From Candidatus Aenigmatarchaeota archaeon (GTDB lineage Archaea > Aenigmatarchaeota > Aenigmatarchaeia > Aenigmatarchaeales > JACQIB01), in contig JBHIDR010000004.1 of NCBI GenBank assembly GCA_046760225.1, forward strand, positions 1 to 38,723: a stretch of DNA of 38,723 nucleotides, given 5' to 3'. The notes beneath the pieces were generated by a model. The model was not told the DNA's origin. It did not search any database and saw nothing but the letters and a program-made list of their open reading frames with translations. The translations under genes were made by a program, and so were the position numbers. Position 1 is the stretch's first letter; each line of letters starts with the position of its first letter. Shown piece by piece: positions 4,590 to 24,830 of the stretch.

Positions 4590-5390
4590 ATGAAGATAAA
4601 TGATGATTTGTCGGAATTAATAGGTGCAATTATTGGAGATGGAAATTTGTATGACAAGAGACCCTCTTTTGTTGAAATAAGTGGAGATCCCAATCTTGAT
4701 TCACATTATTTCAAATCAATTCTAGTACCTATTATAGAAAAAGAACTTAATTATACTCCCAAATTATTTCATCATAGTGGCGCATTAAGACTAAGAATAA
4801 ATAACAAGAAATTCGTCCTATTCCTAAAGGGAATAGGAATACCAAGCGGAAAATATAAGACCAAGGGTGTTTTAATTCCTGATATTATTCTAAGTTCTTG
4901 GAAAAATACCAAACGATGTATAAGAGGTATATTTGATACTGATGGATGTATTCACTTTGATAAAAGAAATGTTTATAGAAAGCCATATCCTAGGATAGAA
5001 TTACACATGTCTAATCACAGATTAATAAGACAGATACAAATTGTCCTTGATAAACAGGGAATTTATACCAAAACCTCCAAGAAGAAAAACTCATTTTCAC
5101 TTTATTTTAACGGTCCTAAAGGTACCAAGAGCTTTCTTTCAAATGTAGGATTCTCCAACCTAAGACATATAAGTAGAATAAATAAATTCTATCCAGACAT
5201 GATATCGTTGAATTGTGCCAATGCCCCGGTGGCTCAGCCCGGTAGAGCGGCTGACAATTGGCCGAATCTCGTAACTAGGCAAGAAAACAGCAAGTCGGGG
5301 GTTCAAAAGGGGAGAAACTACGTTTCTCCCTCTACCCTCTCCCTTGAGGGTGGCCTGAAATTCCCTCCCGGGGCTCCAATCTACAAATAG
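4590..5390 (+). CDS. free-standing two-motif LAGLIDADG homing endonuclease-like protein
   Basis: Motifs LIGAIIGDG and IRGIFDTDG; AT-rich. Start moved to ATG 4590 because the track's start at 4332 overlaps amrS antisense. The last ~55 codons run through tRNA-Thr. Confidence 0.8.
   Translation: MKINDDLSELIGAIIGDGNLYDKRPSFVEISGDPNLDSHYFKSILVPIIEKELNYTPKLFHHSGALRLRINNKKFVLFLKGIGIPSGKYKTKGVLIPDIILSSWKNTKRCIRGIFDTDGCIHFDKRNVYRKPYPRIELHMSNHRLIRQIQIVLDKQGIYTKTSKKKNSFSLYFNGPKGTKSFLSNVGFSNLRHISRINKFYPDMISLNCANAPVAQPGRAADNWPNLVTRQENSKSGVQKGRNYVSPSTLSLEGGLKFPPGAPIYK
5223..5378 (+). tRNA. tRNA-Thr(CGU) with three introns (30/31: 5254-5266; 37/38: 5274-5285; 59/60: 5308-5361), encoded CCA
   Basis: Spliced: GCCCCGG TG GCTC AGCCCGGTA GAGC G GCTGT CTCGTAA ACAGC AAGTC GGGGG TTCAAAT CCCTC CCGGGGC TCCA (77 nt, U73). 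BHBs: GAG-CGGC-TG|A..GCCG-AA|T-CTC and TTCA-AA|A..TGAA-AT|T; the 37/38 motif is relaxed. Confidence 0.9.
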
Positions 5391-5465
5391 AAAAACCTCA
5401 TTACTAACCTTTCCATATTTATCACTGATAGATAGTTATTTAAGCACTAGTAAGAAATTGTAATT

Positions 5466-6251
5466 ATGGACTATGGTGACTTTGAGGATGATGCACAGAG
5501 AATCAGAAAAGCATTAATTCCGAAGATTATTGACAAGGAATTAAGGGGTTATATAGTATTACCAAAACCGTGGAAGCCGACCATTTCTGCCATTGTTTAT
5601 TCTCACTGGAATTTGAAGGAAGAAAGCAAATACCGCTCCCCTGATGGCAAAACACATTTGGATGAGGTAGAGGAAGAATTGGAATCCAGAGGGTTGGTTA
5701 AGCCTGCCCGTTCAATTTCAGTCAGGGTGGCCTCACGTGCTGCACTTTATAACTGGCTGGCATCATGGGGTGAATTGCCTGACCATCTAACTGCATACGA
5801 TAGAAATGGTGAGGTTATCCCAAGATCTGAAGTACAGTTTTATACCGATGATATGGTTGTTGAAGGAATGGAGCAAGATATGCGCATTAACATAGAAAAT
5901 GCATCCGACTTGAAAGATGTTCTAAAGGTTTTCAAAGAACGAGGTCACAAATTCAAAATCGATGATGACTGGGATTTCTCAAACGGGAAAATGGAAGAAG
6001 AGGCAGAAAATGCTTTCTATTTTGCAGAAGCAATACCTTTGATTGCCTTATTTGTAGAAGAAGCACCAAAGAGAGGTTTCGACAACGTGAATTATACATA
6101 TGCTAAACGCGGTAAAAGCGAACTGGGCAGCTATGTTTCAATCAGCAATTTAGCTGCTTCGAAATGTTTCTCAGAATTGGGCTTTGTTCCTAAAACGGTA
6201 ACTCGGTTGGTTAACAGAACCTTTTCGAAGTTCATTGCCGGGATTTATTAG
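5466..6251 (+). CDS. hypothetical protein
   Basis: 261-aa ORF with TATA-like TTTAAG upstream; no recognisable motif. Confidence 0.65.
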   Translation: MDYGDFEDDAQRIRKALIPKIIDKELRGYIVLPKPWKPTISAIVYSHWNLKEESKYRSPDGKTHLDEVEEELESRGLVKPARSISVRVASRAALYNWLASWGELPDHLTAYDRNGEVIPRSEVQFYTDDMVVEGMEQDMRINIENASDLKDVLKVFKERGHKFKIDDDWDFSNGKMEEEAENAFYFAEAIPLIALFVEEAPKRGFDNVNYTYAKRGKSELGSYVSISNLAASKCFSELGFVPKTVTRLVNRTFSKFIAGIY

Positions 6252-6594
6252 CAAGTCTCTTTTTTATCTGTCCTAAATCTTCTACGCTTACATAACCTGC
6301 AAAATAGGGCGCGGTGGGACCATGAAGGCGGGTACGCTCTTCTAATTCATCCGCTTCCGAGCGAGTGTAGAGGCCGAACCCCGCATTGCGAAATTCCATT
6401 CCGTAACGCATACCCCAAACGCCTATAACGCACTCTTCGCCGCGTTCTTTCGACTCATTTTCCAACATCCTCTCTATTTCATCCAAATAAGCGGTATCAA
6501 CAGATTTCAAGTCCTTCAATTCGACAGGTTTTCGGGCGTTAAACGTCTTCAAAGGGTTATAATTACGAGGTTTCTTAATGACTGCTTCAGACAT
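6232..6594 (-). CDS. hypothetical protein
   Basis: ORF from ATG 6594 (MSEAVIKKP...); codon style differs from core genes. Confidence 0.55.
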   Translation of the reverse strand: MSEAVIKKPRNYNPLKTFNARKPVELKDLKSVDTAYLDEIERMLENESKERGEECVIGVWGMRYGMEFRNAGFGLYTRSEADELEERTRLHGPTAPYFAGYVSVEDLGQIKKRLANKSRQ

Positions 6595-6737
6595 AATTAA
6601 TATTGTAACTCTAATGTTTTTAAAATCATCATATCTCAATTACGTCAAATTCAAGACTTATAATTAGGTGACCGGGCGACCTCAGAAAGGAGGGATTAGA
6701 CTTTTAAAACCTCAGGCACATCTATTCTTTGATTGAT

Positions 6738-7040
6738 ATGGCAGAATGGATAACATTTGTGAAAGGGGAGAACGTCAGGAAGGCTGAGGGCATCCTGAAG
6801 AAGGATTTTGATGTTGCAGCAAAGCAGTCAATAACAGTAAGGGATGCAAAGGCACTTGGAATAGAGGCTGAAGGCAGCTTCTTCTATATCAAGGGCAGTA
6901 ATGAGGGAGTGGCAAGGTGCAAGGAGCTCATAAAGGATCTTGTAGCTGAGATAGAGCAGGAGAAACTGGACAAAGCTAAGGAAGAAATTGAGAAAGAGTC
7001 AGAAGCTGCTGCAAGCGGTATGGGCGGGATATTCAAATAG
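6738..7040 (+). CDS. conserved archaeal hypothetical protein
   Basis: 100-aa ORF from ATG 6738 with QSITVRDAKALG and C-terminal AAASGMGGIF; core-like codon usage. Confidence 0.75.
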   Translation: MAEWITFVKGENVRKAEGILKKDFDVAAKQSITVRDAKALGIEAEGSFFYIKGSNEGVARCKELIKDLVAEIEQEKLDKAKEEIEKESEAAASGMGGIFK

Positions 7041-7043
7041 AAA

Positions 7044-7132
7044 TGGTGCGCCCGGCGGGATTCGAACCCGCGTTACAAGCTTGGGAAGCCTATCCGAAAT
7101 TTCTTTGGATCCTACCACTAGATTACGGGCGC
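7044..7132 (-). tRNA. tRNA-Gly(CCC) with 15-nt intron at 29/30 (7090-7104), encoded CCA
   Basis: Spliced: GCGCCCG TA ATCT AGTGGTA GGAT C CAAGC TTCCCAA GCTTG TAAC GCGGG TTCGAAT CCCGC CGGGCGC ACCA. BHB ATCC-AA|A-GAAATTTC-GGAT-AG|G. Confidence 0.92.
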
Positions 7133-7157
7133 ATAAAATTTGTTTTCTTTTCTAACT

Positions 7158-8702
7158 TTAATAAATTTCTATTCCAGTCACACCGTCAATCTTGATTGCC
7201 CTGTCTGAGAAATGCACAGAGTAAACAGGGAAATAAAAGACATCGAAGCGGGTTATGTCTGTTGTTGGGTTCAGTGCCTTGAGAACCTCTCTCAGGGCCT
7301 GCTTTGTCACCCTTGGCTTCAGTGCCCTTCCTGGTGCCTGGATGTCCTTTGCAGGATAAGGCAGAGCATGTGTAACATTGGGCACTTTCAGCTTTGTCAT
7401 GGAGATATACTTCCTTGCCCTGCCCTCCTTTCCAGCATATGTTATGAGGTTCCTTGCCTGCAGGGCCTTGAGTATTTTCCTTATGCTGCTTTCCCTCAGC
7501 CTGAGCTTCATCTTGAGCTCAGCTACTGTTGTTCCCTTTGAGCGGGCAATCTCCAGCATTGCCCTTGCCTCGCTCTCGCCAAGGCCTATTAGCTGTGACA
7601 TTCCATTGCTCAGAACAAGGCCGTTCCTGACATCAGCCATTCTTCCGCCTATGCCGTCAATTATGAAGGAATATGTCCTGAAGCCCTTCTTTAGCAGGCC
7701 CTCTTCCCTCTTGACCTCAACATAAAACAATGGGTGCTGGGTAAGCTCTATTCCTGTAACATGCTCCTTTTCTCCAAAGACCTTGTATTTCCTTTTCCTC
7801 TTCATCTCAACTATTCTGTGTATCTTCTGCTTGTCAACCATTATCCTTATTGATGGGAGTGTTTTTGCAGGCTCTCTTTTCTCCTTCTCTTTGCCAAGGA
7901 GCGAGCTTATTTGTGCTATCCTGCCCTTCTGCTTTGGAACGAGCCTTGGTGTGAGGCCCTTGTGGTGAGTCTCCCTGGGGAAGCTCTTCATCTTTATTTT
8001 TTCCTTTGAGATGCTGCCCATCACAAAGAACTCACCTGCCTTTAGTTTTGGAAGGTCCTCAAGCTCTTTCCTGGTTGCAAAGAAAAGGTTAACTGCTTGC
8101 AGATCGTTCTCGGTTGTTAGCTTGCCTATGAACTGGTTCCCGCACTGGCTGAGCACGTTCTTGTTGACCAGCGCAGGCCTCTGTGTTGCAACCAGAATAC
8201 CAAGGCCCCGCTTTCTGCCGCGGCGGGATATCTCCTCTATTTTCTTTATGGAATCCTTTCCTTGCGGCACGAACTTGTCAGCTTCCTCTACTATCAGAAG
8301 AAACGGCTGCCTGAGCTTTGTCTCTGCCGCATACAGCGCCTTTGAGAACTCCTCAACAGCATTTCTTTCGTCCATCACATCAGAAACATCAAGAATAAGG
8401 GGTATGTTCTCCTTCACCACCTTTTCAGCCAGCTCCGAATAATTCACGCCTTCTATGTCCAGGTCAGCGCCCTCTCCTCCTGCCCAGAGTATATCAAATT
8501 TCTCTTTTAAGGAGAAGTATTCGCCTTCAGTGTCAATCAAGCAGAAGCCTATGTTGTTCTTGAGCATGTGCTCGCAGAGCACTGCTATCAGATAGCTCTT
8601 GCCTGCACCTGACTGCGCTATTACGCATGTCCTTCCTGTTACCAGCTCCTGGGCATCCAATGAGAAGTTCTTGGATATGTTGAGCTTTATGCTATTGTCC
8701 AT
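7158..8702 (-). CDS. HerA/DUF87-family P-loop ATPase with C-terminal winged-helix region
   Basis: Walker A AQSGAGKS, IDTEGEY, Walker B LLIVEEADKF, RRGRKRGLG..ATQRPA; wHTH-like GTTVAELKMKLRLRESSIRKILKALQARNLI. Start placed at ATG 8702. Confidence 0.85.
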   Translation of the reverse strand: MDNSIKLNISKNFSLDAQELVTGRTCVIAQSGAGKSYLIAVLCEHMLKNNIGFCLIDTEGEYFSLKEKFDILWAGGEGADLDIEGVNYSELAEKVVKENIPLILDVSDVMDERNAVEEFSKALYAAETKLRQPFLLIVEEADKFVPQGKDSIKKIEEISRRGRKRGLGILVATQRPALVNKNVLSQCGNQFIGKLTTENDLQAVNLFFATRKELEDLPKLKAGEFFVMGSISKEKIKMKSFPRETHHKGLTPRLVPKQKGRIAQISSLLGKEKEKREPAKTLPSIRIMVDKQKIHRIVEMKRKRKYKVFGEKEHVTGIELTQHPLFYVEVKREEGLLKKGFRTYSFIIDGIGGRMADVRNGLVLSNGMSQLIGLGESEARAMLEIARSKGTTVAELKMKLRLRESSIRKILKALQARNLITYAGKEGRARKYISMTKLKVPNVTHALPYPAKDIQAPGRALKPRVTKQALREVLKALNPTTDITRFDVFYFPVYSVHFSDRAIKIDGVTGIEIY

Positions 8703-8757
8703 AAAAACTTTATTCTGGGTTAAAATATATAAGCTCTTACCATAAACGTATTTACAA

Positions 8758-8844
8758 GGGCCCATAGTCTAGTGGTAGGACAATACCCTTACAGAGGCAT
8801 TAGGATAGGTATAGGTCCCAGTTCGATTCTGGGTGGGCCCACCA
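8758..8844 (+). tRNA. tRNA-Val(UAC) with 13-nt canonical 37/38 intron (8794-8806), encoded CCA
   Basis: GGGCCCA TA GTCT AGTGGTA GGAC A ATACC CTTACA|A GGTAT AGGT CCCAG TTCGATT CTGGG TGGGCCC ACCA; central helix CTTA/TAGG. Confidence 0.93.
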
Positions 8845-8848
8845 CTTA

Positions 8849-8975
8849 GGGCCCGTAGATCAATGGAAGATCGCAACCTTGGCATAGCGAAAGCGTCGAA
8901 GGTTGAGGTTCCGGGTTCGAGGCACTTCCCGAAGTGCACACGGACGGAAGTGAGAAATTCCCGGCGGGTCCACCA
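8849..8975 (+). tRNA. tRNA-Ala(GGC) with two introns (15 nt in anticodon loop, 38/39 favoured: 8886-8900; 37 nt at 59/60: 8922-8958), encoded CCA
   Basis: Acceptor GGGCCCG/CGGGTCC with G3:U70 Ala identity pair; anticodon stem CAACC/GGTTG; T-stem CCGGG/CCCGG; intron stem CACTTCC/GGAAGTG. Lies 4 nt after tRNA-Val (likely dicistronic). Confidence 0.9.
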
Positions 8976-9127
8976 TCCTGAAAATCGATAGTTTTAAGAA
9001 GTTCTAGCGAGATTTATTTCTAACAAAAACCCTTTAATGAAAAACTTAAAGAGGTACTTGGAAAATATGTTCAAAGGTTAAGGAAAATTGTTCTCAAGGA
9101 AAAGCTTAGCCAAAGTTCGGTGATTCT

Positions 9128-9556
9128 ATGTTTGGTCCTCACCTAATGCTCGACTGCTATGGTTGCAATGAAGAAATGATGAATGATGAGAAGGTAATTC
9201 TGGATTTCTTGAATGGTCTTGTGGACCACGTCAAGATGACCAAGATAGCAGAGCCGTTCATAATACAGTTCAAGGGAAACCCAAAGACATTTGACAACGG
9301 CGGTGTATCTGCAATGGTGATAATAGCAGAGAGCCATATCTCTATACACACCTTCCCTGGAAACGGAGGATACCTTAACATAGACATATTCTCCTGCAAG
9401 GACTTTGATGTGAAGGGCGCGATTGATTTCGTGACCAGTCACTTTGCTCCACAGAAGATTGAAAAAAGGCTCCTTTCAAGGGGCAGGCACTTTGCAAGAG
9501 AGGAGGTTGTACCTGTTCTCAACAAGCAGAGGAAAGATTTAAAGAAAAGGTACTAA
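9128..9556 (+). CDS. speD: S-adenosylmethionine decarboxylase proenzyme family (could be the arginine decarboxylase paralog)
   Basis: GPHLMLDCYGC, GGVSAMVIIAESHISIHTFP (pyruvoyl ES cleavage site), IDIFSCK. Confidence 0.85.
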   Translation: MFGPHLMLDCYGCNEEMMNDEKVILDFLNGLVDHVKMTKIAEPFIIQFKGNPKTFDNGGVSAMVIIAESHISIHTFPGNGGYLNIDIFSCKDFDVKGAIDFVTSHFAPQKIEKRLLSRGRHFAREEVVPVLNKQRKDLKKRY

Positions 9557-9565
9557 TTCTTTTCC

Positions 9566-10006
9566 ATGATAACCGAGAGGGTATATGACAAATGGATGGA
9601 AAAAACGCAGTGTAAGAAAATTGAAAAGATTCTGAATAAGGTAAGGCCAGAAGGCAGAATACTAGATGTTGGCTCTGGTCCTGGTTTTCTTGAAAGGTTC
9701 ATAGATGCTGTTGCAACTGATGTTGACCTGAAGAACCTAAGGGGAGTGGAAGGCCCAAAGGTGCTTTGCTCAGGTGATGCGCTTCCTTTCAAGGGCAAGT
9801 CATTTGACTGGGTGTTCTGCATAGACACTGTTCACAAGCTCAGGGATACAGATGAGCTGAAAAGAGTAGGAAAAAGACTGGTTGTCACAATGTTCTGCAA
9901 TGAGAGTAATGCAGAGGAAAGGATGGAAGAACTGGGAAAGATAGGTGATGGTGAGCTATTCCTTGTAAAGGCAGAAAGGGAATGGGACGCTGTGCTTGTT
10001 GTCTAA
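9566..10006 (+). CDS. small class I SAM-dependent methyltransferase
   Basis: ILDVGSGPG motif I; DALPFKGKSFDWVFC. Confidence 0.8.
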   Translation: MITERVYDKWMEKTQCKKIEKILNKVRPEGRILDVGSGPGFLERFIDAVATDVDLKNLRGVEGPKVLCSGDALPFKGKSFDWVFCIDTVHKLRDTDELKRVGKRLVVTMFCNESNAEERMEELGKIGDGELFLVKAEREWDAVLVV

Positions 10007-10356
10007 ATTCTGGTTAGCATTTTTGACCTTTCTTCATTCTCTGAACTCCATTTAGCCCCCTCAATTGTGTCCTTTTTGTACATCGGGCTATATTTAAGCA
10101 GTCTTGCTCTCTCAGCAAGATTCAGGGCATGTGAGTATATGTTGCTTATTTTCAGGTAATCAAGAAAATAATTATGCCCGCTGCATCCATTAACAAACTG
10201 TCTTTTCCTCATTTTCACTTCATTTCTTGCCAGGTCCACAAGGTCCTTGAGCGGAGCCTTTTCAACTGTTTCTTTATAATGCTCTCTAAAGGGCCTGTAC
10301 TCCTGCATAAGTCCTCTTAGCTTTTCAACACTTGATTTTTTGATTTTCCTTACCAT
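10003..10356 (-). CDS. hypothetical protein
   Basis: ORF downstream of the metallophosphoesterase; ATG 10356 preceded by SD-like GGGGA. Confidence 0.55.
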   Translation of the reverse strand: MVRKIKKSSVEKLRGLMQEYRPFREHYKETVEKAPLKDLVDLARNEVKMRKRQFVNGCSGHNYFLDYLKISNIYSHALNLAERARLLKYSPMYKKDTIEGAKWSSENEERSKMLTRI

Positions 10357-10382
10357 GCAATCCCCTAACATATTTACCACTA

Positions 10383-11120
10383 CTATAGCTTGTGGTACTC
10401 CACAATAGGACAGTCCTCGCCTGGCGCGTCTGTATCAATTATAGCGAAATTACCGTTAAAATATGCACCGGGATTTATTGTATGCGTCCTGCGCTTGAAA
10501 AGACGGAACTTCTCGCTGTTCCCTCCACTATAGCTTACAATGCCTTTTTCCGGGTCCTTGTAAGTATACTCAGGAGCATGGTCATGACCGCGAATCATCA
10601 TGCTGTATCCTTTCTTTTCCATGGCCTCGAAATTTTTGTAATGGTCTGCCTCGGACTCCAGCCTGTTCCATAAGTCAGCAGGCTTCCATACATAGGTCCC
10701 TTCATAGGCGCCGTGCATCACAACCACTTCATGATTAGAATCGTTCTCCAGGCTTAGTCTTATCCTTCGGGCAGCGTTTTCTATTTTTGACTTGCTGTCC
10801 AGCATTCCCTGCACATATTCGCGCACATCCCTGTTTTCAGGCTTTTCCCATTCTTCCCACATCATCTGCGAGTCTATGCCCTGTCTGGTCATGGTGCCTG
10901 AGAATATCTCTTCCCTGTTGATATGAGAGTAGTCGTGATTGCCTGGCACAACTGCCCATGGCATGTCTCCCTTTGTCTGCATCTCCAACATCTGGCGCGC
11001 TATGTGAGCCCTGTCAAAATCACCCAGGCATATGCCCTGGTCAATCTTTCGCGCCTTGAACTCAGCTTCTATCCTTCCCAGGTCAGAACCGTGAACATCC
11101 GTTATAATCCCGTATCTCAT
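10383..11120 (-). CDS. calcineurin-like metallophosphoesterase
   Basis: Motifs DVHG, LGD, GNHD, MHG, GHDH, INPGA. Confidence 0.88.
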   Translation of the reverse strand: MRYGIITDVHGSDLGRIEAEFKARKIDQGICLGDFDRAHIARQMLEMQTKGDMPWAVVPGNHDYSHINREEIFSGTMTRQGIDSQMMWEEWEKPENRDVREYVQGMLDSKSKIENAARRIRLSLENDSNHEVVVMHGAYEGTYVWKPADLWNRLESEADHYKNFEAMEKKGYSMMIRGHDHAPEYTYKDPEKGIVSYSGGNSEKFRLFKRRTHTINPGAYFNGNFAIIDTDAPGEDCPIVEYHKL

Positions 11121-11175
11121 ATATAATATTTACTACTTTCTGGTATATAAACTTAAGGAAGGATGATTTTACGGT

Positions 11176-12180
11176 TTATTCAGTTAATTTATACCTCAGC
11201 AGTGCAGCTATGCCGCCCATTGCAAGGAGGCGCTCTCCTGCAGGGTGCTCGCTTGATATAATCATCATTTTTCCCCTTGTCTTGTCAACCATTTCCATGA
11301 GCTCCTCGTTCTCCCTGACTTTCTTGTCGCTTATGAGCAGGGTCTGCACTGCACCTGCCTGGGCTGCCTTCTTTACCTCTTCCAGACCATATGCCATTTT
11401 GCCTTCCTTGCCCAGCTCTTCAAGGAACTTCTCAACAGCAGCTGTTTCCTCTGAGATCCTGGACTGTTTTGTTATCCTTTCAAGCACTTTTCTCTTTATT
11501 ACCTCGCTGAAGCCCAGTTCTCCTGTATGGCTGCAGCCCTCTATGACCATTTTTCTTGCCAGTTCAGGCTCCTTTTCCCTGATTTCCTTTGCCAGCTCAT
11601 CCTTGATAAAACCAGGCCCAGCTATCACCAGATGCCTTATCTCCCTTCTCTTCAAATCAGCTATTATCTCGCCAAAATACTCTGGTTTCCTGCTTTTTCC
11701 CTCTTTTTTTGCATGGCCCGGACCAAGCAAACGCAGCAGATGGCGCTTTCTTTCCCTTACAAGATAGAGGTCGTATTCAGATTCATCAAGTATGGCAACA
11801 TGAACAGGCTCTGTGGGCTTTGCAGCAGCCCTTATTTTGTCCACTTCCCATTTCTTCCACTCCTTTTCAACTGTAAGGAAGGTGCCCGGAGTGATGTCAA
11901 GTGTGTGCCAGCCATAGGAGATGTCCTCAGGCCCCTCGATTATCTTGCCCCCAAGCCTCAGGGACTCTGCCAACTCCACTTTCTCCACCTTTATCTTGAG
12001 TGTCATTGGCCTTTTCCCGACCTTTTCCTTCCTTTCCTCTCTTCTGACCTCCACGCTGCGCACTGTCCTTGCCTTGACAAGGGAGCCAGGGGTAATCATG
12101 TCGCTCAGTATCCAGAGGTCATCAGAAGACTCTGGCGTGATCCTGGCTATCCCGTGCTTGAGGTCAAAGGAAGATTTCAT
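11176..12180 (-). CDS. pelA: mRNA surveillance protein pelota
   Basis: PESSDDLWIL..PG..V.A.T.R, LRLGGKI, HTLDI, IAGPGFIK, AYGLEEV..A..GAVQTLLISD, GGIAALLRY. Start ATG 12180 or GTG 12189. Confidence 0.93.
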   Translation of the reverse strand: MKSSFDLKHGIARITPESSDDLWILSDMITPGSLVKARTVRSVEVRREERKEKVGKRPMTLKIKVEKVELAESLRLGGKIIEGPEDISYGWHTLDITPGTFLTVEKEWKKWEVDKIRAAAKPTEPVHVAILDESEYDLYLVRERKRHLLRLLGPGHAKKEGKSRKPEYFGEIIADLKRREIRHLVIAGPGFIKDELAKEIREKEPELARKMVIEGCSHTGELGFSEVIKRKVLERITKQSRISEETAAVEKFLEELGKEGKMAYGLEEVKKAAQAGAVQTLLISDKKVRENEELMEMVDKTRGKMMIISSEHPAGERLLAMGGIAALLRYKLTE

Positions 12181-12246
12181 ACCTATCACTTCTTCTTTTT
12201 TCCATAAATAGATAGATTTATAAGATTTACTATCTTAAGGTAATAT

Positions 12247-12984
12247 ATGCCAGAATTCCTACCCACACTCATTGCAGGGCTAGTGATTTTTCTTATAGCC
12301 GGGCTTGCAGTTGCGTTCCCGCAGCAGCCAGCAGGTGCAACAGGAGGCGTGATAACCCATACAGGCAACCATCTTGACTATTTTATTGTGGCAGACAGCG
12401 TTGTGCTGAGGACAAACGAGGTCCTGAAACTGAATGACACAGCAAGCGTGAACAGGACCCATAATCATTTTGCAAACTTTTACTTCAAGCCTGCATACAA
12501 CAGCACGCTCCTTAAGATAAAGGTGCACGAGACCAACAGCCAGGGCATGCTGATGGTGCTGGTCAACAGCAAGGTTGTATATGCCGGCTATGCCAAGGAT
12601 ATTGTGGAAGTGGAATTTGATGACGACATGCTTGGGAAGAAGAATGACCTGGAAGTAAAAGTGGGAAGCCCTGGATGGAGGTTCTGGGAGTCGCCTGAAT
12701 ACAGTGTTGGCATAGAAGTATATGGTTTGGTGAAGAAAGGGGCTGAAAAGGACTTCACCCTAAGCAATCCAAGGGACGCAAAACTTAAGATATTCCTTTT
12801 GGAAGAGCCAGAAGGCGAGCTGACAATAAAGCTGAATGGAAAGCAGCTCTTCAAAGGAAGCACAGGAGAATACATGGAGCTTGAGATAGGTGCAGGTGAA
12901 TTCAAGGAGCACAACAGGATGGAGCTCGTGCCATCCCATGACGGCTACTTCAACATAGACTATGCAGAAATAATATTCAAGTAA
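12247..12984 (+). CDS. N-terminally anchored beta-rich surface protein
   Basis: Hydrophobic N-terminus; two similar beta modules (GMLMVLVNSKVVYAG / GELTIKLNGKQLFKG). Confidence 0.7.
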   Translation: MPEFLPTLIAGLVIFLIAGLAVAFPQQPAGATGGVITHTGNHLDYFIVADSVVLRTNEVLKLNDTASVNRTHNHFANFYFKPAYNSTLLKIKVHETNSQGMLMVLVNSKVVYAGYAKDIVEVEFDDDMLGKKNDLEVKVGSPGWRFWESPEYSVGIEVYGLVKKGAEKDFTLSNPRDAKLKIFLLEEPEGELTIKLNGKQLFKGSTGEYMELEIGAGEFKEHNRMELVPSHDGYFNIDYAEIIFK

Positions 12985-15274: not shown

Positions 15275-15278
15275 TAAT

Positions 15279-15926: not shown

Positions 15927-15935
15927 GCTGATTTC

Positions 15936-18068: not shown

Positions 18069-18108
18069 TATTTTATATTGAAAAACCAAATAATTTCAAG
18101 GTGAATGG

Positions 18109-19017
18109 ATGAAGAAACTGCTCGCAGTGGTTGTTTTTGCTGTAATCATAGCTGGCTGTGTGGGACAGGAGGACACCATAACATACGGCGAGAACATAAT
18201 CATAGTTAAGGACGAGAAGGTGCTTCCAAGTCCTGTGACAGCAGGGAGCAGCTTTGATGTCAGCTTTATTGCACAGAACGTGCATGAGACAGAGGACGCG
18301 AACAATGTGCTGATAACACTTTATGACTGGGGACCAGCTGCATGCAAGGTGACTTCTGTTGGCGGTGCAGGTGTTGGGGAAGAGACATTCTATACGCTTC
18401 TTTCAGAGAGCAGGGTCCCTTCAGGAGCAGAGAGACTGGTTGAAATAGGCGCAAAAGCGCCTTCGCAGGCAGAAATTGCAGGAATAAGGTCGAGGTGCGA
18501 CTTCAAGTATAATGTAATGTACGACAGCTTTGCAGTAACAACAATAGACACTTCTGTTATTTCAGAGGCAAGGCTGAAGCAGCTGCAGAAGGCAGGCGAG
18601 ACTGTCAGCTTTAGCCCTACGCAGACAATCGGAGCAGGCCCTATCCAGATAAAGTTCGAGCACGCAGTAAGTCTTCCTGTAAGGGAAGGAGACAGCCTGA
18701 TATTCGATGTCAAGGTAGAAGACGTGGGGGAAGGAAACTACATCAGCATACCTGTTGACACACTTGAGGTAACTGTTCCAGAAGAATTCATACCTGTGGA
18801 AGAGGGATGCAGTATTGAGTTTGTCGGGAATGTGGAGAATGGGAAAAGAGTGTACAGGAACAAGGAACCACTTCCGCTCATAAGGGGGAGCACATCAAAA
18901 TACAGGTGCAAGTTCACAGCACCCAGTGTGCTTGAGGAAAGGACATTCTTCATAACAGGAAGAATGGACTACACTTACGTAATATACAAGGAGATAAGTG
19001 TCGACATAATACCATGA
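18109..19017 (+). CDS. putative lipoprotein, two Ig-like beta domains
   Basis: MKKLLAVVVFAVIIAGC lipobox; GPIQI, DVGEG, DYTY. Confidence 0.8.
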   Translation: MKKLLAVVVFAVIIAGCVGQEDTITYGENIIIVKDEKVLPSPVTAGSSFDVSFIAQNVHETEDANNVLITLYDWGPAACKVTSVGGAGVGEETFYTLLSESRVPSGAERLVEIGAKAPSQAEIAGIRSRCDFKYNVMYDSFAVTTIDTSVISEARLKQLQKAGETVSFSPTQTIGAGPIQIKFEHAVSLPVREGDSLIFDVKVEDVGEGNYISIPVDTLEVTVPEEFIPVEEGCSIEFVGNVENGKRVYRNKEPLPLIRGSTSKYRCKFTAPSVLEERTFFITGRMDYTYVIYKEISVDIIP

Positions 19018-19022
19018 TTCAT

Positions 19023-19889
19023 ATGAAAAGCAAAATTTTGGTTCTGGTGGCTGTTTTTGTTCTTTTAGCCAGTGGCTGTGTTGGGCAGGAGGAGGGAGAT
19101 GTCATAAAACAGATTCTCAGGATAGATGTTGTTGCAGGAGGAGTAGAGGACATCCACATAAGGGCAGAGGTACCTGAGTTTGCAAGACCGAACAGGAACT
19201 TCACATGGCACATCCTTGCAACACCGAGCATTGATATTTCTGATTTTGATTTCTTTGTCTATGACAGGTGCGGGGAGCTCTTCATTCCTGTTGGCGATGA
19301 CTCCTTCCATGAGGACTCAATAAGGGCGAACAGGACAAAGACATACGAGATAAAATATACACTGAAGGAAACCCAGGTTAACAGCTGCAAGGTTAGGTTC
19401 AAGACAACTTATACATCGAACATGACAATGAGCCAGAACATTGTTGTGCTTGATGAGTTCGAGTGGATGGAAAGGGAGAACAGGGGCACAAGAAAGGACA
19501 TACCTGTGTACACTTACAGCAGCACGAACCCGCTCAGGATGGAGATCTCCTTTTCCCATGACCAGCCATTGATAGAGGAAGCTGAAGTAAGGATGTATAT
19601 TGATTACTATGATGATGGAACAGGCATAATAAGCGAGCTCGGGCCAGGCGATGTTAAGATAGAGGTGCCCGGCAACCTGGAGTTCATTACATGCGATGAC
19701 TATAAAATGGAAGATAACATGCTTGTGCTTGACAAGGAAAAGAAGTTCTTCAACAAAAAGGCTGTGCGCTCCACATGCGAGTTCAACACGCTGGCCGAGC
19801 AGGTAATTGACACAAGGACAATGTTCATAGAGGCTCTCTATGGCTATAGCCTGGACAATGAGTTCACAGTAAGCATACTGAGGTTGTGA
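19023..19889 (+). CDS. putative lipoprotein, paralog of 18109
   Basis: MKSKILVLVAVFVLLASGC lipobox; NPLRM, DDGTG, LYGY. Confidence 0.8.
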   Translation: MKSKILVLVAVFVLLASGCVGQEEGDVIKQILRIDVVAGGVEDIHIRAEVPEFARPNRNFTWHILATPSIDISDFDFFVYDRCGELFIPVGDDSFHEDSIRANRTKTYEIKYTLKETQVNSCKVRFKTTYTSNMTMSQNIVVLDEFEWMERENRGTRKDIPVYTYSSTNPLRMEISFSHDQPLIEEAEVRMYIDYYDDGTGIISELGPGDVKIEVPGNLEFITCDDYKMEDNMLVLDKEKKFFNKKAVRSTCEFNTLAEQVIDTRTMFIEALYGYSLDNEFTVSILRL

Positions 19890-19891
19890 AA

Positions 19892-20242
19892 ATGGGAATT
19901 GAAATGGCTGGCTTCACATGGTCGCTCCTTGCAGGCATGATGGCAGCCATACTCATGGTCTACTCAATTGACAAGAAAAGCAAGGAGCTGTATGTTGCAT
20001 CTCTTGCATTCGTGCTGGCTTCCTGGAGCGGGCTTGAATGGGGGCTCTGGATGCTCGGGCAGGACATGTTCCAGCTTGTGTACAGGCCGATTGTTCCCAT
20101 GGCCTTCTTTTTCCTTGTCTGGACAGGGTTTGTGATATATACCTCTGAAAAGGTGTTCAAGGAAAGGCGCTACTGGGTGGCCTTCCTGGCCCTCATCATA
20201 TTTATAAGCATTGTTGCACGTTTTTGCATGGACTGCCTGTGA
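19892..20242 (+). CDS. small 4-TM membrane protein
   Basis: Four hydrophobic segments; closely coupled to the upstream gene (alternative GTG start 19886). Confidence 0.75.
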   Translation: MGIEMAGFTWSLLAGMMAAILMVYSIDKKSKELYVASLAFVLASWSGLEWGLWMLGQDMFQLVYRPIVPMAFFFLVWTGFVIYTSEKVFKERRYWVAFLALIIFISIVARFCMDCL

Positions 20243-20293
20243 AAATAGATTTAAATATGAACATCAAACAATTATGAATAGAGAGGGAGTGAA

Positions 20294-21184
20294 ATGAGCA
20301 AATATCTGCTTGCAGTGGTTGTTTTTGTAGTATTGATATCTGGATGCTTTGGGCAGCCACCTGTAGATCAAGAAATCGAATGTGCAACTTCTATGGTAAA
20401 CGGGCTTTCAATAACATGCTTTTCCTCTTCTGTAGGAGATTTGAGGAGCGGCCAGTCAACAACACTCCAGCTGGAGGTCGAGAACAAGGGAGAGGATGTT
20501 GTAAGCCAGGAATGGGGAGCCGCGCACCTGATAATACCAACTGACTGGAGCCTTGAAAAGGCAGTTACGCTTGCCTATCCAAAGGACCTGAAGAACGCTG
20601 ACCCTGCAACAGGAAGGCCTGCTGACATATACCAGTTCAGGTGGAGGGCAACCTCGCCAGGACTTCCCCGCGGCCAGGTAAGGTATGACACAATTATAGG
20701 AAGGGTTTATTATGACTATACCACGACTGCAAGCGGTGTTATCCCTGTATATCCCTATGGGGAGGACATAGTTGAAACAGCCAGCTTTACATCAAGTGTT
20801 GGTCCTGTTGCAATAAGCGTTGCTGTTATGCCCAACCCGCCAGCAATAGAATTTGCTGGAGAGGAGTTCAGCCTTTCAATAGTTGTAACAAACACTGGTG
20901 AGGGACAGGTCTATATGAACAACACTGTAAACTCTGGCAATCTTGAGCTGGAAGAAACAGAAAGGGACATTGTCAACCTTGATATTGTGCTTCCAACAGG
21001 ACTCAATGTAACAGATCCAGGATGCTACAAGGACATTGAACTGATTCGGGGAAGGGCAACTGCAATATGTGATGTGGAAGTAATCGACAAGCCTGTTGCA
21101 AAGCAGCTCCATCCTGTCACAATAAAGGCATACTATGGATACATGATAGAGGCCAGCACAACAGTGAGCATCACAGGAAGATAA
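20294..21184 (+). CDS. putative lipoprotein, paralog of 18109/19023
   Basis: MSKYLLAVVVFVVLISGC lipobox; ENKGE, YYDY, GPVAI, NTGEG, YYGY. Confidence 0.8.
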   Translation: MSKYLLAVVVFVVLISGCFGQPPVDQEIECATSMVNGLSITCFSSSVGDLRSGQSTTLQLEVENKGEDVVSQEWGAAHLIIPTDWSLEKAVTLAYPKDLKNADPATGRPADIYQFRWRATSPGLPRGQVRYDTIIGRVYYDYTTTASGVIPVYPYGEDIVETASFTSSVGPVAISVAVMPNPPAIEFAGEEFSLSIVVTNTGEGQVYMNNTVNSGNLELEETERDIVNLDIVLPTGLNVTDPGCYKDIELIRGRATAICDVEVIDKPVAKQLHPVTIKAYYGYMIEASTTVSITGR

Positions 21185-21191
21185 TCAGAAC

Positions 21192-22430
21192 TTAATATTC
21201 TGAAAGGTTCTTTTGCTTGTGTTCGTAATATTTAATTTCTAGCTTCTTGCCTGGTGGAATCGGTATACCATATACGCCTGCACCACCAGGTATATATCTG
21301 AACTTCCCATTCCTGAAAGCAGATATCAGCTCGCTTGTCCCTTGGTCTATTTTTGCTATATCCTCAATAGGAACCTCAATCAGTACCTTTATTTCGCTTC
21401 CAAAGCTGTCGACAAGCTGCCTCCATAAATCTTGAACCTTGACAGACCAGACATTTGTTATATTCAGGGCTTTTGCTATTATTTCTGAAAGAGGGATTAT
21501 ATGGACGTATTTTGGTCTATGGGAAGGGTGCCTATCTTCTTCAAAGCTAGCAAGCTCCTCTATCCTGAAATCAACCCCTTTCTTAATCGCTCTCTTACAA
21601 TTGGGGCATCTCCAACCAAATCTGGCAGCTTCCTTTGGTTTGAAAAATAACAAACAGCCAGTGCATCTTGTTTTATGGTACTTGCCCTCCAGCGGATTGA
21701 AGCCCACGTTCAGGATACATCTCCTACCACCTTCTCTCTTCAGTGCCTTCCTTATTTCCTCGAAACTGATTCCCTTTATCTGGAGCCTGTTAAATTCTCT
21801 TCCCATTTTGTTTGGCCATGGACTATGGGCATCACTGTTTGTAAGGAATGATAGGTTATGCAACTCAGCTATTCTGTCAGCCATATTGGTATCTGCTGAG
21901 AGGCCCAGCTCCACGAAATGTATTCTCTTCCACTGGTCTCCGTAACAACCCTTGTAAGAATCAAACTTTGCATACAAGCCAAAATAAGGAGTAAAGGCAT
22001 GGGCAAACCCGATAAGGCAGCCAGCTTCGTTGCATATTTCTGCTACCTGCTCTCCGTTTAAGTGTATTTTTGGCCTGCCATCCATGTCCAAGTTCTTACA
22101 ATAATTTTTAAACTTCTCTCTAAGCTCGTACACCTTACTGAAGCTTGGGAACAAAATGATATGATGCACCCTGTTGTTGTCCTCTATCTCTGTTTGTAAT
22201 AAAAACTTTGTTCCATTAGGATGCTCAAGAACATCATCTGCTGTTTGCTTCAGCTGTTCTTTTACCAGTCTTATCCAGCGTTCGTTCAGTATGTCAGCCG
22301 TACCAACAAGGTGAAGGCCTTTAAGTGGTGCCTGTTCCCCGATAACTCGGGGCACCATCTTATCTGATACAGCTCCAGAATACAGGCCATGCAAATGCAA
22401 GTCTGCATTGATCTCGATAAAATCGCTCAT
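21192..22430 (-). CDS. TIGR00375-family PHP-domain protein (endonuclease Q-like)
   Basis: ADLHLHG.YS, VGTAD, RVHH, DGRP, AHAFTP, ELGLSAD, NSDAHSP, GREFN, GKYH..C..C, CPNC..IKKGV, PGGAGVYG. ATG 22430 overlaps the upstream stop (ATGA). Confidence 0.88.
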   Translation of the reverse strand: MSDFIEINADLHLHGLYSGAVSDKMVPRVIGEQAPLKGLHLVGTADILNERWIRLVKEQLKQTADDVLEHPNGTKFLLQTEIEDNNRVHHIILFPSFSKVYELREKFKNYCKNLDMDGRPKIHLNGEQVAEICNEAGCLIGFAHAFTPYFGLYAKFDSYKGCYGDQWKRIHFVELGLSADTNMADRIAELHNLSFLTNSDAHSPWPNKMGREFNRLQIKGISFEEIRKALKREGGRRCILNVGFNPLEGKYHKTRCTGCLLFFKPKEAARFGWRCPNCKRAIKKGVDFRIEELASFEEDRHPSHRPKYVHIIPLSEIIAKALNITNVWSVKVQDLWRQLVDSFGSEIKVLIEVPIEDIAKIDQGTSELISAFRNGKFRYIPGGAGVYGIPIPPGKKLEIKYYEHKQKNLSEY

Positions 22431-23173
22431 TTTCTCGCCCTGAAGATTATTGTTGGTCCAATCTTTCTCGATAAATCCTTGGGATAATATTCTTCCAGCC
22501 CCTTTTGCTCCAACCATAAGGGCTCAATAATTTTTTCAACAAAAAATCCAGCTCCAATCAAAGCATTGTAGATGTCGCTTACTTTTACATGATATCCGAC
22601 AAATTTGTGTTTCTTGCCGTCAGGCCAAACCTCAATTTCTTCATATCTGCCTGTCTTAAAATAGCTCTTCTCAATCCTGTGCGTCTTAATGTTTATCAAG
22701 TCATGAAAAGGATGGGGCATGCTGAACACAAACAGCCCCTTTTTCTTGACTATCCTGTAGACCCCCCTGAATAGCTTTTTAAGGTTCGGAGAATATTGGA
22801 AAGCCCATGCCGAGACAGCCATATCGAAACTGTTGGATTTGAATCTCGTCAAATTTTGAAAATCGCCCTTCACAAACCTGACTTTCACCTTTTCCTTTTT
22901 AGCCAGATTTTCTGCATATTTCAGCTGCTCTTTAGATACATCTATTCCTGTGCATATTGCTCCCCTCTTTGCTAGGGCTATTGAATTTTGACCGCCGCCA
23001 CATCCAACTTCAATTATTTTTTTGCCCTTGACATTGCCAAGCAGCCTTAATTTGCCTTCATTTGGTGCATGCACTCCCCAATGAACAGAGCTTGTAGGTA
23101 TTTTGGCATCCTTTTGAAAATATTGGGAAGATTCATCCCACCATTTTTCTATTATTCTCCTGTCCTTCCCCAT
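22427..23173 (-). CDS. class I SAM-dependent methyltransferase
   Basis: IIEVGCGGG, GIDVS, FDMAVS, GLFVFSMPHPF. Confidence 0.88.
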   Translation of the reverse strand: MGKDRRIIEKWWDESSQYFQKDAKIPTSSVHWGVHAPNEGKLRLLGNVKGKKIIEVGCGGGQNSIALAKRGAICTGIDVSKEQLKYAENLAKKEKVKVRFVKGDFQNLTRFKSNSFDMAVSAWAFQYSPNLKKLFRGVYRIVKKKGLFVFSMPHPFHDLINIKTHRIEKSYFKTGRYEEIEVWPDGKKHKFVGYHVKVSDIYNALIGAGFFVEKIIEPLWLEQKGLEEYYPKDLSRKIGPTIIFRARK

Positions 23174-23183
23174 AAAAACCACA

Positions 23184-23283
23184 TGGTGGGCCGGGGGAGA
23201 ATCGAACTCCCGATCCCTACCGTGTCAGGGTAGTGTCATTTGGTGAAGCTCCTGAAGAAGCTTTACCACTAGACCACCAGCCC
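23184..23283 (-). tRNA. tRNA-Val(GAC) with a ~23-24 nt D-loop intron (~23239-23263), encoded CCA
   Basis: GGGCTGG TG GTCT AGTGGTA[..]TGAC A CTACC CTGACAC GGTAG GGATC GGGAG TTCGATT CTCCC CCGGCCC ACCA; intron hairpin AGCTTC-TTCA-GGAGCT; exact junction ambiguous by 1-2 nt. Confidence 0.9.
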
Positions 23284-23336
23284 GTGCATGAAAGTTAATA
23301 AAGAAAGTTTATTAAGTTTTCCTTATAACTCTTATT

Positions 23337-23795
23337 ATGGCAATAAACAGGGAATACAGCAGGCTCAAGAAGAAATACAAGAAGCTCCCTGACTGGGCAT
23401 GGCTCAGGAAGAACTTCACTGTCAAGATAGAGGAGGACGGAGCTGCAATAGAGCAGGTCAAGAACACCATGGTGGAGAAGCTGGAGAGCGTCAACGGGAA
23501 AATAGAGCCCATACTCTCTGGTGCTGAGAACTTCTGCTGCTATTTTGAAAGGAGGATGCTCGCGCGGAAGCAGAAGGAAAAGATGTTCGAGCTCTACAAG
23601 AAGATACAGTCATTGCTCTGGAGGTCCAGTGCAATAAACGTAAGCCCTTCTGAAAAGGAATGTGTTGAATGGGTGATAGATGCAAAGGAATTCTGGGAAA
23701 CGAACAAGAGGTTCTTTGTTGACACGTTCCATAGTATCTCAAAGGGCTGGAAGGCCCACAAGGAAGCTGAAGTGGAAACAGCATACCACGGGTAA
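23337..23795 (+). CDS. conserved hypothetical protein
   Basis: 152-aa helical ORF (Y..LKKKY.LP...C-terminal YHG); core codon usage. Confidence 0.75.
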   Translation: MAINREYSRLKKKYKKLPDWAWLRKNFTVKIEEDGAAIEQVKNTMVEKLESVNGKIEPILSGAENFCCYFERRMLARKQKEKMFELYKKIQSLLWRSSAINVSPSEKECVEWVIDAKEFWETNKRFFVDTFHSISKGWKAHKEAEVETAYHG

Positions 23796-23800
23796 TTTCT

Positions 23801-24322
23801 ATGGGAATTCTTGGAAAGAAATTCTATGAAAGAAATACAAAGAAGGTGGCGAAAGAGCTGCTGGGCAAGATACTCGTTCATGGAAGGAAGAGGGGGAAGA
23901 TAGTTGAGACAGAAGCGTATCTTGGAAAAAATGATCCTGGTTCAAAAGGATGTAGGAATGTTAAATCTGCCCCAAAGGTGCTGCTCGGGTCTGCAGGCCA
24001 TGCATTTGTTTACTTTACTTACGGAAATCACTGGATGCTGAATGCTGTTACTGAAAAAGAAGGAAAGGCAGGAGCTGTTCTCATAAGGGCAATAGAGCCT
24101 ATTGCAAACGTGAAGAACACCAGTGGACCGGGAAGGCTTACAAAGGCATTCAGAATAACAGGCAAACACAGCGGAAAGGACCTGACAAGGGGAAGGCTAT
24201 ATATCGAGGACTCAAAGGAAAGGCCCAAGATAGTAACAACAACAAGAATAGGACTTTCAAAGGGAAGCGACCTGAAGCTTAGGTACTATATCAGGGAGAA
24301 TAAATTCATTTCAAGGAAATGA
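23801..24322 (+). CDS. mpg: 3-methyladenine DNA glycosylase (MPG/AAG family)
   Basis: VAKELLGK, IVETEAYLG..DP, YFTYG.H.MLN, AVLIRAIEP, GPGRLTKA, RIG.S. Confidence 0.92.
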   Translation: MGILGKKFYERNTKKVAKELLGKILVHGRKRGKIVETEAYLGKNDPGSKGCRNVKSAPKVLLGSAGHAFVYFTYGNHWMLNAVTEKEGKAGAVLIRAIEPIANVKNTSGPGRLTKAFRITGKHSGKDLTRGRLYIEDSKERPKIVTTTRIGLSKGSDLKLRYYIRENKFISRK

Positions 24323-24323
24323 T

Positions 24324-24599
24324 TCACTTTTTCTTTTTTGGTTTCTTCACTGGCTTCTTCTTTACTGGCTTCCAGGCAGGCATCCTTCTCATGTATGCAT
24401 TTACAAATCTGGTTGCCGCTTTCTTGTCCATTTTCTTTGCCTTCATGAAGAAAACAACCATTCCTTCCTTTACTGCTGCCCTTGACTTCAGCTTTCCTTT
24501 TGTATCAGTGCAGTAAATGCAGTAAACATTCTTCTCATTCCCCCCGCCGTGCTGCTTGGCGGTCTTCATTGGCATACCGCAACTCTTGCAGCTTACCAT
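24324..24599 (-). CDS. putative zinc-ribbon protein with Lys-rich tail
   Basis: CKSCGMPM...YCIYC...MPAWK. Start moved to ATG 24599 because the track's extension overlaps the tRNA. Confidence 0.8.
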   Translation of the reverse strand: MVSCKSCGMPMKTAKQHGGGNEKNVYCIYCTDTKGKLKSRAAVKEGMVVFFMKAKKMDKKAATRFVNAYMRRMPAWKPVKKKPVKKPKKKK

Positions 24600-24634
24600 A
24601 ATAGAATTTGCTTTGAGGGGGTTAATAAAGAAAA

Positions 24635-24830
24635 TGGTGGGCGGGATGAGATTTGAACTCACGACTTCTAGACCGGTTTGGATTCCAGACCGGTTCACTA
24701 GTTGGCCTCGCCACTAGCTTTTCCAGCCAGTGCCTTATAAGACTTGCACGCAGTGCTTAGCGCTCTAATTGCCAAACGCTTGGGTTTCCTGGCTGAGCTT
24801 TGCGGGTCCGTTCGCACGAACTACCCGCCC
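24635..24830 (-). tRNA. tRNA-Ile(UAU) with five introns: 8/9 (24800-24822), 19/20 (24769-24787), 29/30 (24744-24757), 37/38 (24704-24735), 45/46 (24666-24695); encoded CCA
   Basis: Removing 23+19+14+32+30 nt from 196 nt gives a 78-nt cloverleaf: GGGCGGG TA GCTC AGCCAGGTTA GAGC G CTAGT CTTATAA ACTAG TGGTC GTGAG TTCAAAT CTCAT CCCGCCC ACCA. Each junction sits in a BHB-type motif. Confidence 0.88.

Follow-up and report, generated by a model that had tools for sequence, protein, structure and literature searches.

tRNA Genes and Introns of the Window

The window analysed here is a stretch of 38,723 nucleotides (contig JBHIDR010000004.1, assembly GCA_046760225.1) from an archaeon of the Aenigmatarchaeota (DPANN). 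It contains six tRNA genes, all interrupted by bulge–helix–bulge (BHB) introns (13 in total, 12–54 nt each), and a gene encoding a free-standing LAGLIDADG homing endonuclease that reads through the first of them. The host assembly has a length of 851 kb and is 83% complete; the runs containing host DNA are hydrothermal-vent metagenomes. Below, G000 is the host genome, G001 is the available genome of the same genus (the congener), G002–G005 and other G numbers are further relatives, and C and L denote contigs of G000 and loci, respectively.

The endonuclease gene (4590..5390, plus strand) encodes a protein of 266 aa, starting with the ATG at 4590 and carrying two LAGLIDADG motifs (Pfam PF14528). 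Its frame has no stop before tRNA-Thr(CGU), passes through this entire three-intron gene and ends 12 nt past its CCA. The tRNA-Thr(CGU) gene (5223..5378, plus strand) has introns at positions 30/31 (5254..5266, 13 nt, full motif), 37/38 (5274..5285, 12 nt, three of four pairs in the central helix), and 59/60 (5308..5361, 54 nt); the first of these is the intron linked to the endonuclease. tRNA-Gly(CCC) (7044..7132, minus strand) has one 15 nt intron at 29/30 (7090–7104), and tRNA-Val(UAC) (8758..8844, plus strand) has one 13 nt intron at 37/38 (8794–8806). tRNA-Ala(GGC) (8849..8975, plus strand) starts 4 nt after tRNA-Val and contains two introns, at 38/39 (8886–8900, 15 nt) and 59/60 (8922–8958, 37 nt). 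A single D-loop intron of 24 nt at 21/22 (23239–23262) is present in tRNA-Val(GAC) (23184..23283, minus strand). Finally, tRNA-Ile(UAU) (24635..24830, minus strand) contains five introns, located at 8/9 (24800–24822), 19/20 (24769–24787), 29/30 (24744–24757), 37/38 (24704–24735), and 45/46 (24666–24695). The 8/9 intron is identical in sequence to the 8/9 intron of tRNA-Ile(GAU).

Manual reading and a custom intron-aware cloverleaf search were concordant, confirming the claim of the first-pass annotation that every tRNA of the window is split, with 13 introns in six genes. All introns can be folded into a BHB motif, strict or relaxed (a 4-bp helix flanked by two 3-nt bulges). The central helix has four of four pairs in ten introns and a single mismatch in three (Thr 37/38, Ile 37/38, and Ala 59/60), as had been anticipated for several motifs. 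The intron-side helix is present in 13 of 13 introns. The outer helix on the exon side is poorly formed or lacking in Ile 8/9, Ile 45/46, Ala 38/39, and Val 21/22, the last of which has none. Three or four introns had been placed at the canonical position 37/38; three are indeed found there, and the fourth, in the anticodon loop of tRNA-Ala, fits 38/39 instead. The earlier inventory of six tRNAs stood, but the LAGLIDADG gene running through tRNA-Thr and the copied intron families described below had been overlooked.

After in silico removal of the introns, 21 of 21 stem pairs are formed in five genes and 20 of 21 in Val(GAC), and ARAGORN called all six spliced products with the expected anticodon. 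The predicted fold of the Ile(UAU) precursor preserves the acceptor and T arms (z −3.6). The cloverleaf search scores of the six genes were 93–112.5; control scores reached no more than 43 when the genome was reversed and 48 when its tRNAs were masked and looser settings applied, and the match scoring 48 was a genuine 45th gene. Shuffling (2000 times per intron) recreated the motif in at most 3% of cases for 12 introns and in 7.5% for Ile 37/38, in a test that is partly circular since the register was picked together with the motif. DNA contigs span the intron-containing Thr and Gly genes in two to three of four vent runs, and no intron-skipping joint was found among the contigs of these runs, which come from one study and two of which may be the source of the assembly. 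The inserts are genuine BHB introns within tRNA genes that probably work and, judging by their motifs, would be spliced by proteins.

No seventh tRNA was found in the window; a weak Rfam match at 37967–38042 scored just 17. ARAGORN without the intron option detected two of the six genes, both mis-typed, and Rfam detected three. Either program alone was inadequate for tRNA finding, as was a profile search without pairing, which mis-parsed tRNA-Ile and missed tRNA-Ala.

Genome-Wide tRNA Intron Load

In the whole host genome, 45 tRNA genes were reconstructed, of which 37 are interrupted and eight are not; they contain at least 88 introns, or about 2.0 per gene. Genes with a score of at least 81 and compact introns were counted, while looser settings yielded spurious chains of 10–20 “introns” with scores up to ~65. 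Four loci were corrected manually: the Met start, Leu(CAG) with a variable-arm intron, and Leu(GAG) and Tyr with long introns. The number of 88 introns is a minimum, the junctions not being settled for Tyr and for the anticodon loop of an initiator-like gene (C18:16738–16907). The latter has an initiator-type tRNA body with four introns, and the script gave no CAU anticodon at its anticodon-loop junction. This 83% complete assembly yielded no tRNA gene for Arg(CCG), Cys, Leu(UAA), Pro(UGG), or Thr(GGU). Among the 80 short introns, position 37/38 is the commonest (n = 19), followed by 59/60 (n = 18); ten are located at 30/31.

Rfam (E ≤ 0.001) finds 18 genes in the same genome, and ARAGORN -i finds 21, several of them mis-typed, in line with the expectation that standard annotation would undercount the tRNAs of this lineage; DPANN tRNA sets are evidently badly undercounted. 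Mostly intron-less tRNAs in the rest of the genome, including duplicates of the window isoacceptors, had been named as the observation that would speak against a general interruption; no intron-less duplicate was found for the six isoacceptors among the 45 genes.

The highest load was detected in tRNA-Phe(GAA) (C2:21139–21358), which contains six introns (9/10, 30/31, 37/38, 43/44, 53/54, and 59/60) and, when checked manually, forms 21 of 21 pairs. The endA genes are 1.4 kb away from it, and a weak LAGLIDADG frame lies at a distance of 474 nt. Published per-gene maxima are three introns (PMC4390854, PMC8450103) and, in Asgard archaea, five (bioRxiv 10.64898/2026.10.13.758758), the highest printed count found; the Ile(UAU) gene of the window equals it, and tRNA-Phe surpasses it. 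AUA accounts for 5830 of 9923 Ile codons (59%) in open reading frames (ORFs) of at least 300 aa, TiaS was found in none of 41 genomes, and the five-intron gene is the sole Ile(UAU) among the 45 reconstructed; for these reasons, it is expected to be essential. ARMAN offers a known precedent for a tRNA-Ile(UAU) in the absence of TiaS (PMC3239211).

A Homing Endonuclease Gene at tRNA-Thr(CGU)

The protein encoded at 4590–5390 matches PF14528 with 34.5 bits (cut-off 22.5) and retains the acidic residue in both motifs; its weak PDB match is an archaeal V-ATPase intein (E 0.016). Six close relatives show 48–54% identity to it, and each ends within 25 nt of a tRNA-Thr(CGU) gene, directly upstream. 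Including the host, close homologues occur in seven of 371 genomes from five families, and seven of seven are located at tRNA-Thr(CGU). Their distribution is thus patchy and locus-specific; with this query, no homologue was found in the congener.

Four of the seven linked Thr(CGU) alleles have the 30/31 intron, one has an intron at 22/23, and two are uninterrupted, differ in the D-stem, and are accompanied by a leftover 3′ piece of a tRNA. A free-standing endonuclease gene therefore lies beside an ORF-less tRNA intron at five of seven loci. At the two others (L219 in G028 and L222 in G314), the endonuclease gene is followed by the intron-less D-stem-variant tRNA-Thr(CGU) and then by the 3′ half remnant of a second tRNA-Thr, which looks like an allele replacement travelling with the endonuclease.

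The next endonuclease clade adjoins Thr(GGU) genes with 28/29 or 29/30 introns (six of seven) and Phe genes with 30/31 introns, and one homologue lies within a 638-nt 30/31 intron. Among the 18 best homologue loci, 16 have the endonuclease gene immediately in front of, or within, a Thr or Phe tRNA of the same strand, and the tRNA has an intron at 28/29–30/31 in 12 of these 16. When Thr(CGU) genes were compared, an endonuclease was found beside 5 of 22 genes interrupted at positions 22–31 vs. 0 of 88 uninterrupted genes (Fisher P = 2e-4, a value inflated by kinship and obtained with a counting pattern that misses the two D-stem variants). The control was counted manually and comprised 110 genes (122 rows minus 12 other tRNAs).

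The host genome has 33 LAGLIDADG matches, and the congener has one. Of 27 LAGLIDADG frames in G000, four free-standing ones run into a same-strand interrupted tRNA (Thr-CGU, Gly-UCC, Pro-GGG, and Leu-UAG), with a rough chance expectation of ~0.5% per frame, and two are inside tRNA introns (Tyr and Leu-GAG). The latter are the long introns at C3:24967–25736 and C3:44836–45826, respectively. Relatives of the Gly(UCC) and Pro(GGG) endonucleases have a tRNA within 260 nt at 18 of 26 loci. An open full-text literature search, with subscription papers outside its reach, returned nothing on free-standing endonucleases beside archaeal tRNA genes.

Copied Intron Families

Cross-isotype families (at least 80% identity) include 15 of the 80 short introns (19%), with a null expectation of 0–2. 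The statistic was modelled on that of the Asgard preprint, in which the corresponding proportion is 28.3% in Thermoproteales and 1.5% in Asgard archaea (bioRxiv 10.64898/2026.10.13.758758). Four clusters are located at 59/60, and one of them extends to position 37/38 of Pro(CGG). Two window introns belong to such families: the Thr 59/60 intron shows at least 80% identity to its counterparts at the same position in Leu(UAG) and Lys(UUU), and the Ala 59/60 intron shows at least 90% identity to that of His. Intron copies outside tRNA genes, which might indicate a source resembling miniature inverted-repeat transposable elements, were not found, the BLAST search giving three weak matches (E 0.014–0.04). 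This favours transfer between tRNA genes, which may proceed via gene conversion or re-insertion of excised introns.

Splicing Endonuclease and RNA Ligase

Two endA paralogues, 49% identical, are located close together on contig C2. The named proteins most similar to EndA carry, for the most part, an Aenigmatarchaeota label. The beta-type gene (C2:22790–23281) lacks the catalytic His, and the alpha-type gene (C2:23747–24355) keeps the catalytic Tyr and His; an ORF that looks nitroreductase-like by eye lies between them (C2:22790–24355, L001). RtcB is also encoded in the genome. Both components of the machinery that had been expected for such introns, an EndA of the two-gene alpha/beta type and RtcB, are present.

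The best PDB match of EndA is the alpha subunit of Nanoarchaeum equitans. A basic seven-residue insertion before the catalytic His of the alpha protein aligns to the N. equitans specificity loop, and there is no N-terminal insertion relative to Methanocaldococcus jannaschii. The position of the triad lysine, which is Lys in the aligned M. jannaschii, Archaeoglobus fulgidus, and N. equitans proteins, is Ala in the alpha protein. All 85 His-bearing EndA sequences examined have Ala, Ser, or Thr there; 30 of their loci were collected by an unbiased Pfam search and the others by similarity to the host protein. In ARMAN-2, loss of this lysine abolishes cleavage (PMC3488258, PMC12397907), and the open full-text search, again exclusive of subscription papers, gave no description of an EndA without it. 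By its sequence, the enzyme would act as an (alpha-beta)2-type endonuclease, though not a textbook member given the missing lysine, and a lysine of the loop may substitute for that of the triad. The finding points toward a phylum-wide splicing endonuclease without a residue held indispensable.

The rtcB gene (C35:1477–1760, L171) itself contains two BHB-type introns at conserved motifs, one of 30 nt in frame and one of 32 nt that breaks the frame. In G003 and G004, a long in-frame insertion, probably an intein, can be noted near the second intron site.

Intron Load among Relatives

In the congener, 36 tRNA genes were reconstructed, 14 of which have a single anticodon-loop intron and none of which has two; it shares the two-gene EndA, and 42 of its tRNAs are visible to Rfam. 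The congener orthologues of the six window genes contain three introns vs. 13, and only a Thr intron (37/38) matches in position, with a different sequence. The proliferation proposed in the first-pass annotation as lineage-wide is thus real genome-wide (37 of 45 genes), and its extension to the lineage was overstated. The Ile(UAU) gene has one intron in G001, two in G002 and G005, three in G004, and four in G003, at shifting positions, and tRNA-Phe has from zero to three introns across three family members. Since counts and positions shift in this way among relatives, gains and losses are likely to be recent, and the architecture of EndA is merely permissive.

Across 41 genomes, the number of Rfam-visible tRNAs, a crude proxy of intron load, varies from 4 to 55. 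G009 (98% complete) has only six Rfam-visible tRNAs and no LAGLIDADG_3 match; it is probably even more heavily interrupted, without endonucleases. The number of EndA genes was considered as a determinant of the load and rejected: Rfam-visible tRNAs number 6–41 in 20 genomes with two EndA matches vs. 7–43 in 14 genomes with one.

Origin of the Introns

We consider it probable that these introns are mostly neutral-to-selfish passengers, gathering unevenly through tRNA-to-tRNA copying and tRNA-targeting homing endonucleases under a permissive EndA. The broad-specificity alpha/beta enzyme would cut the introns and RtcB would ligate the exons, so that the machinery would allow the load without setting it. 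Along one route, an intron would be copied between tRNA genes at equivalent positions, chiefly 59/60, presumably because the conserved T-loop provides the same half-motif there. Along the other, a homing endonuclease would target a tRNA gene, an intron or divergent allele breaking the target would confer immunity, and gene conversion would spread the endonuclease gene and the immune allele jointly, much as collaborative homing does in phages. In the window, this route is putatively represented by the LAGLIDADG gene adjoining tRNA-Thr(CGU) and the 30/31 intron of that tRNA.

Several observations weigh against this account. Neither route accounts for most introns: cross-isotype siblings are missing for ~80% of the short introns, and an endonuclease is attached to just 6 of the 37 interrupted tRNA genes. 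Three of the five linked interrupted Thr(CGU) alleles belong to a single family, which makes the Fisher P an overstatement, and for 61 of the 88 uninterrupted genes the presence or absence of the endonuclease was taken from the homologue search, not from inspection of the loci. Two of the seven endonuclease-linked alleles are intron-less, and among the 15 Thr(CGU) genes interrupted at 30/31, 11 lack a LAGLIDADG gene in the examined flank. For the Gly and Pro endonucleases, relatives are docked on tRNAs without a clean intron link; the closest relative of the Pro(GGG) endonuclease is beside a tRNA whose sole intron is at 37/38, and the locus of the closest relative of the Gly(UCC) endonuclease yielded no tRNA. 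In 35 genomes, the LAGLIDADG count does not follow the intron-load proxy (rho −0.17, P 0.33). Finally, the alpha protein lacks a triad lysine that is essential in ARMAN-2, which leaves the cutting mechanism unexplained.

A bolder version, which we put forward tentatively and regard as possible but somewhat improbable, is that the tRNA micro-introns of archaea are immunity cassettes in an arms race against tRNA-targeting LAGLIDADG endonucleases. Each endonuclease clade would drive an intron at its own position, which would amount to collaborative homing within a cellular chromosome and with introns spliced by proteins, and later be lost, the intron would be copied onward, and repeated rounds would lead to five- and six-intron genes, processed by an EndA without the canonical triad lysine.

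Of the alternatives, a purely neutral origin survives best, though we find it unlikely. Introns would arise locally, by small duplications or RNA repair, wherever a BHB motif can form, and persist thanks to a permissive EndA, while endonucleases would simply settle at the 5′ ends of tRNA genes, where landing is safe and transcription assured. Such a process agrees with the uniqueness of most introns, with the different positions in orthologues (one to four introns in Ile(UAU) across five family members), with the presence of the 30/31 intron without an endonuclease in 11 genomes, and with related endonucleases that adjoin uninterrupted tRNAs as well. However, it predicts neither the contrast of 0 of 88 vs. 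5 of 22 nor an endonuclease clade tied to 28/29–30/31 introns and found once inside a 30/31 intron, and near-identical introns in unrelated tRNAs require transfer.

Selection for breaking the attachment (att) sites of integrating viruses or plasmids, a proposal of Randau and Soll (as given in PMC3293823), appears still less probable. The sole integrase gene of G000 begins 56 nt past tRNA-Glu(CUC) and shares its strand, a layout described for pNOB8-type elements (PMC3293823), and this tRNA carries introns at 21/22 and 59/60. At 30 integrase loci of relatives, eight of eight tRNAs found were interrupted (one parse is doubtful), and 23 loci had no tRNA in the flank. Masked sites would not be expected beside integrases, nor does masking explain the many introns in the 5′ half (8/9 to 30/31) or the BHB-type introns of rtcB and the split 16S rRNA gene, neither of which is an att site. 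What speaks for the proposal is the high frequency of introns at 37/38 and 59/60 (19 and 18 of 80), within the 3′ half often used by integrases, and the occurrence of integrases in 31 of 61 genomes searched. No att-like duplicate of the Glu(CUC) gene of at least 15 nt was found, and none was convincing for tRNA ends; the missing duplicate would be in line with an element that became locked in place once the introns had been acquired. Interrupted tRNAs beside integrases are compatible with intron gain after integration, yet the masking idea, which the first-pass annotation had raised, gains nothing from this and is left unsupported.

Retention of the introns for a function (as modification guides, as folding checkpoints, or in tying tRNA supply to EndA/RtcB activity) is very improbable: the two introns of rtcB at conserved motifs (one frame-breaking), the resemblance of some long 37/38 introns, as in Ser(UGA), to those of the congener, and the guide intron of Haloferax tRNA-Trp mentioned in PMC3488258 are in its favour, but the window introns are short (12–54 nt) and not conserved, the congener having three introns in the same six genes and sharing by position only Thr 37/38.

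Comparison with Known Systems

Returning to the copying and homing account, its elements can be compared with those of four known systems. The multiple-intron tRNAs of Thermoproteales (Sugahara 2008 and Fujishima 2010, as summarised in PMC4033280, PMC8450103, and PMC4390854) likewise have non-canonical positions, relaxed motifs, and a two-subunit EndA, as well as near-identical introns across tRNA types (28.3% there vs. 19% here by a similar statistic). Unlike them, the present host belongs to DPANN and has ~2.0 introns per gene vs. 1.54 in Pyrobaculum calidifontis, with up to six per gene vs. three; its EndA differs in its L3-like loop, in lacking an N-terminal insertion when compared with M. 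jannaschii, and in the missing triad lysine.

Asgard archaea (bioRxiv 10.64898/2026.10.13.758758; PMC11291895) resemble the host in having 2.2 introns per gene, up to five per gene, many gains, an undercount by tools, and an EndA that is permissive and not causal. Copying is near absent there (1.5%) and no arrival route was found, whereas clear copying and endonucleases tied to tRNA genes and positions are present here. In the main text of the 2026 preprint, the words “homing”, “DPANN”, and “Aenigm” do not occur, and the arrival of introns is called “the central open problem”, with no general route found. The genome described here gives two concrete footprints of arrival, recent copying and endonuclease docking, and offers for this question a named candidate enzyme, a candidate target of 20–30 bp, and natural intron-plus and intron-minus alleles.

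The closest analogy to the tRNA-Thr/LAGLIDADG arrangement is collaborative homing in the cyanophage S-PM2 (PMC6083498, PMC2988022), where the free-standing endonuclease F-CphI is located next to the conserved psbA gene, with an ORF-less intron that would prevent self-cleavage. By this analogy, the present pair may work in the same way. The differences are the archaeal chromosome, the LAGLIDADG family, the BHB intron of 12–30 nt that would be spliced by proteins, and the overlap of the frame with the tRNA; here the link is one of association.

The host shares Ile(UAU) without TiaS and 53/54 and 59/60 introns with ARMAN-2 (Micrarchaeum) and N. equitans (PMC3239211, PMC3488258, PMC5829648, PMC12397907), and the basic loop before the catalytic His with N. 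equitans, whose alpha subunit is also the nearest structure. It differs from them in having two separate EndA genes, not an epsilon2 enzyme, and in the replacement of the triad lysine in all 85 sequences. No account of Aenigmatarchaeota tRNA introns was found in the open full-text search, which left subscription papers aside. The tRNA interruption described here takes a known archaeal habit to an extreme, and it extends extreme interruption to a third archaeal lineage.

Other Features of the Genome

Only four tRNAs (Trp, His, Thr-UGU, and Asn) are duplicated in G000, and their second copies are divergent and without an intron (C2:28102–28175, C6:6855–6929, C6:28345–28419, and C17:6811–6885; loci L346, L347, L295, and L348). 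These copies sit 40–240 nt upstream of the cognate aminoacyl-tRNA synthetase gene, on the same strand. It is possible that they are leader elements for synthetase autoregulation or co-transferred pairs. Cognate tRNA copies were found in relatives before none of 22 ThrRS and none of 13 TrpRS genes.

The match to the 16S rRNA gene (C1:42935–46861) is split into three pieces, with a LAGLIDADG frame (45260–45967) between two of them. In the window, three DNA runs show a loose end at 5222, which may be the tRNA-Thr of another organism and was left unused. The region surrounding tRNA-Val(GAC) (22410–23700) differs between runs, and one contig joint omits 22454–23169. A gene for a HerA-like ATPase (7158–8765, minus strand) is located between the Gly and the Val/Ala tRNA genes.

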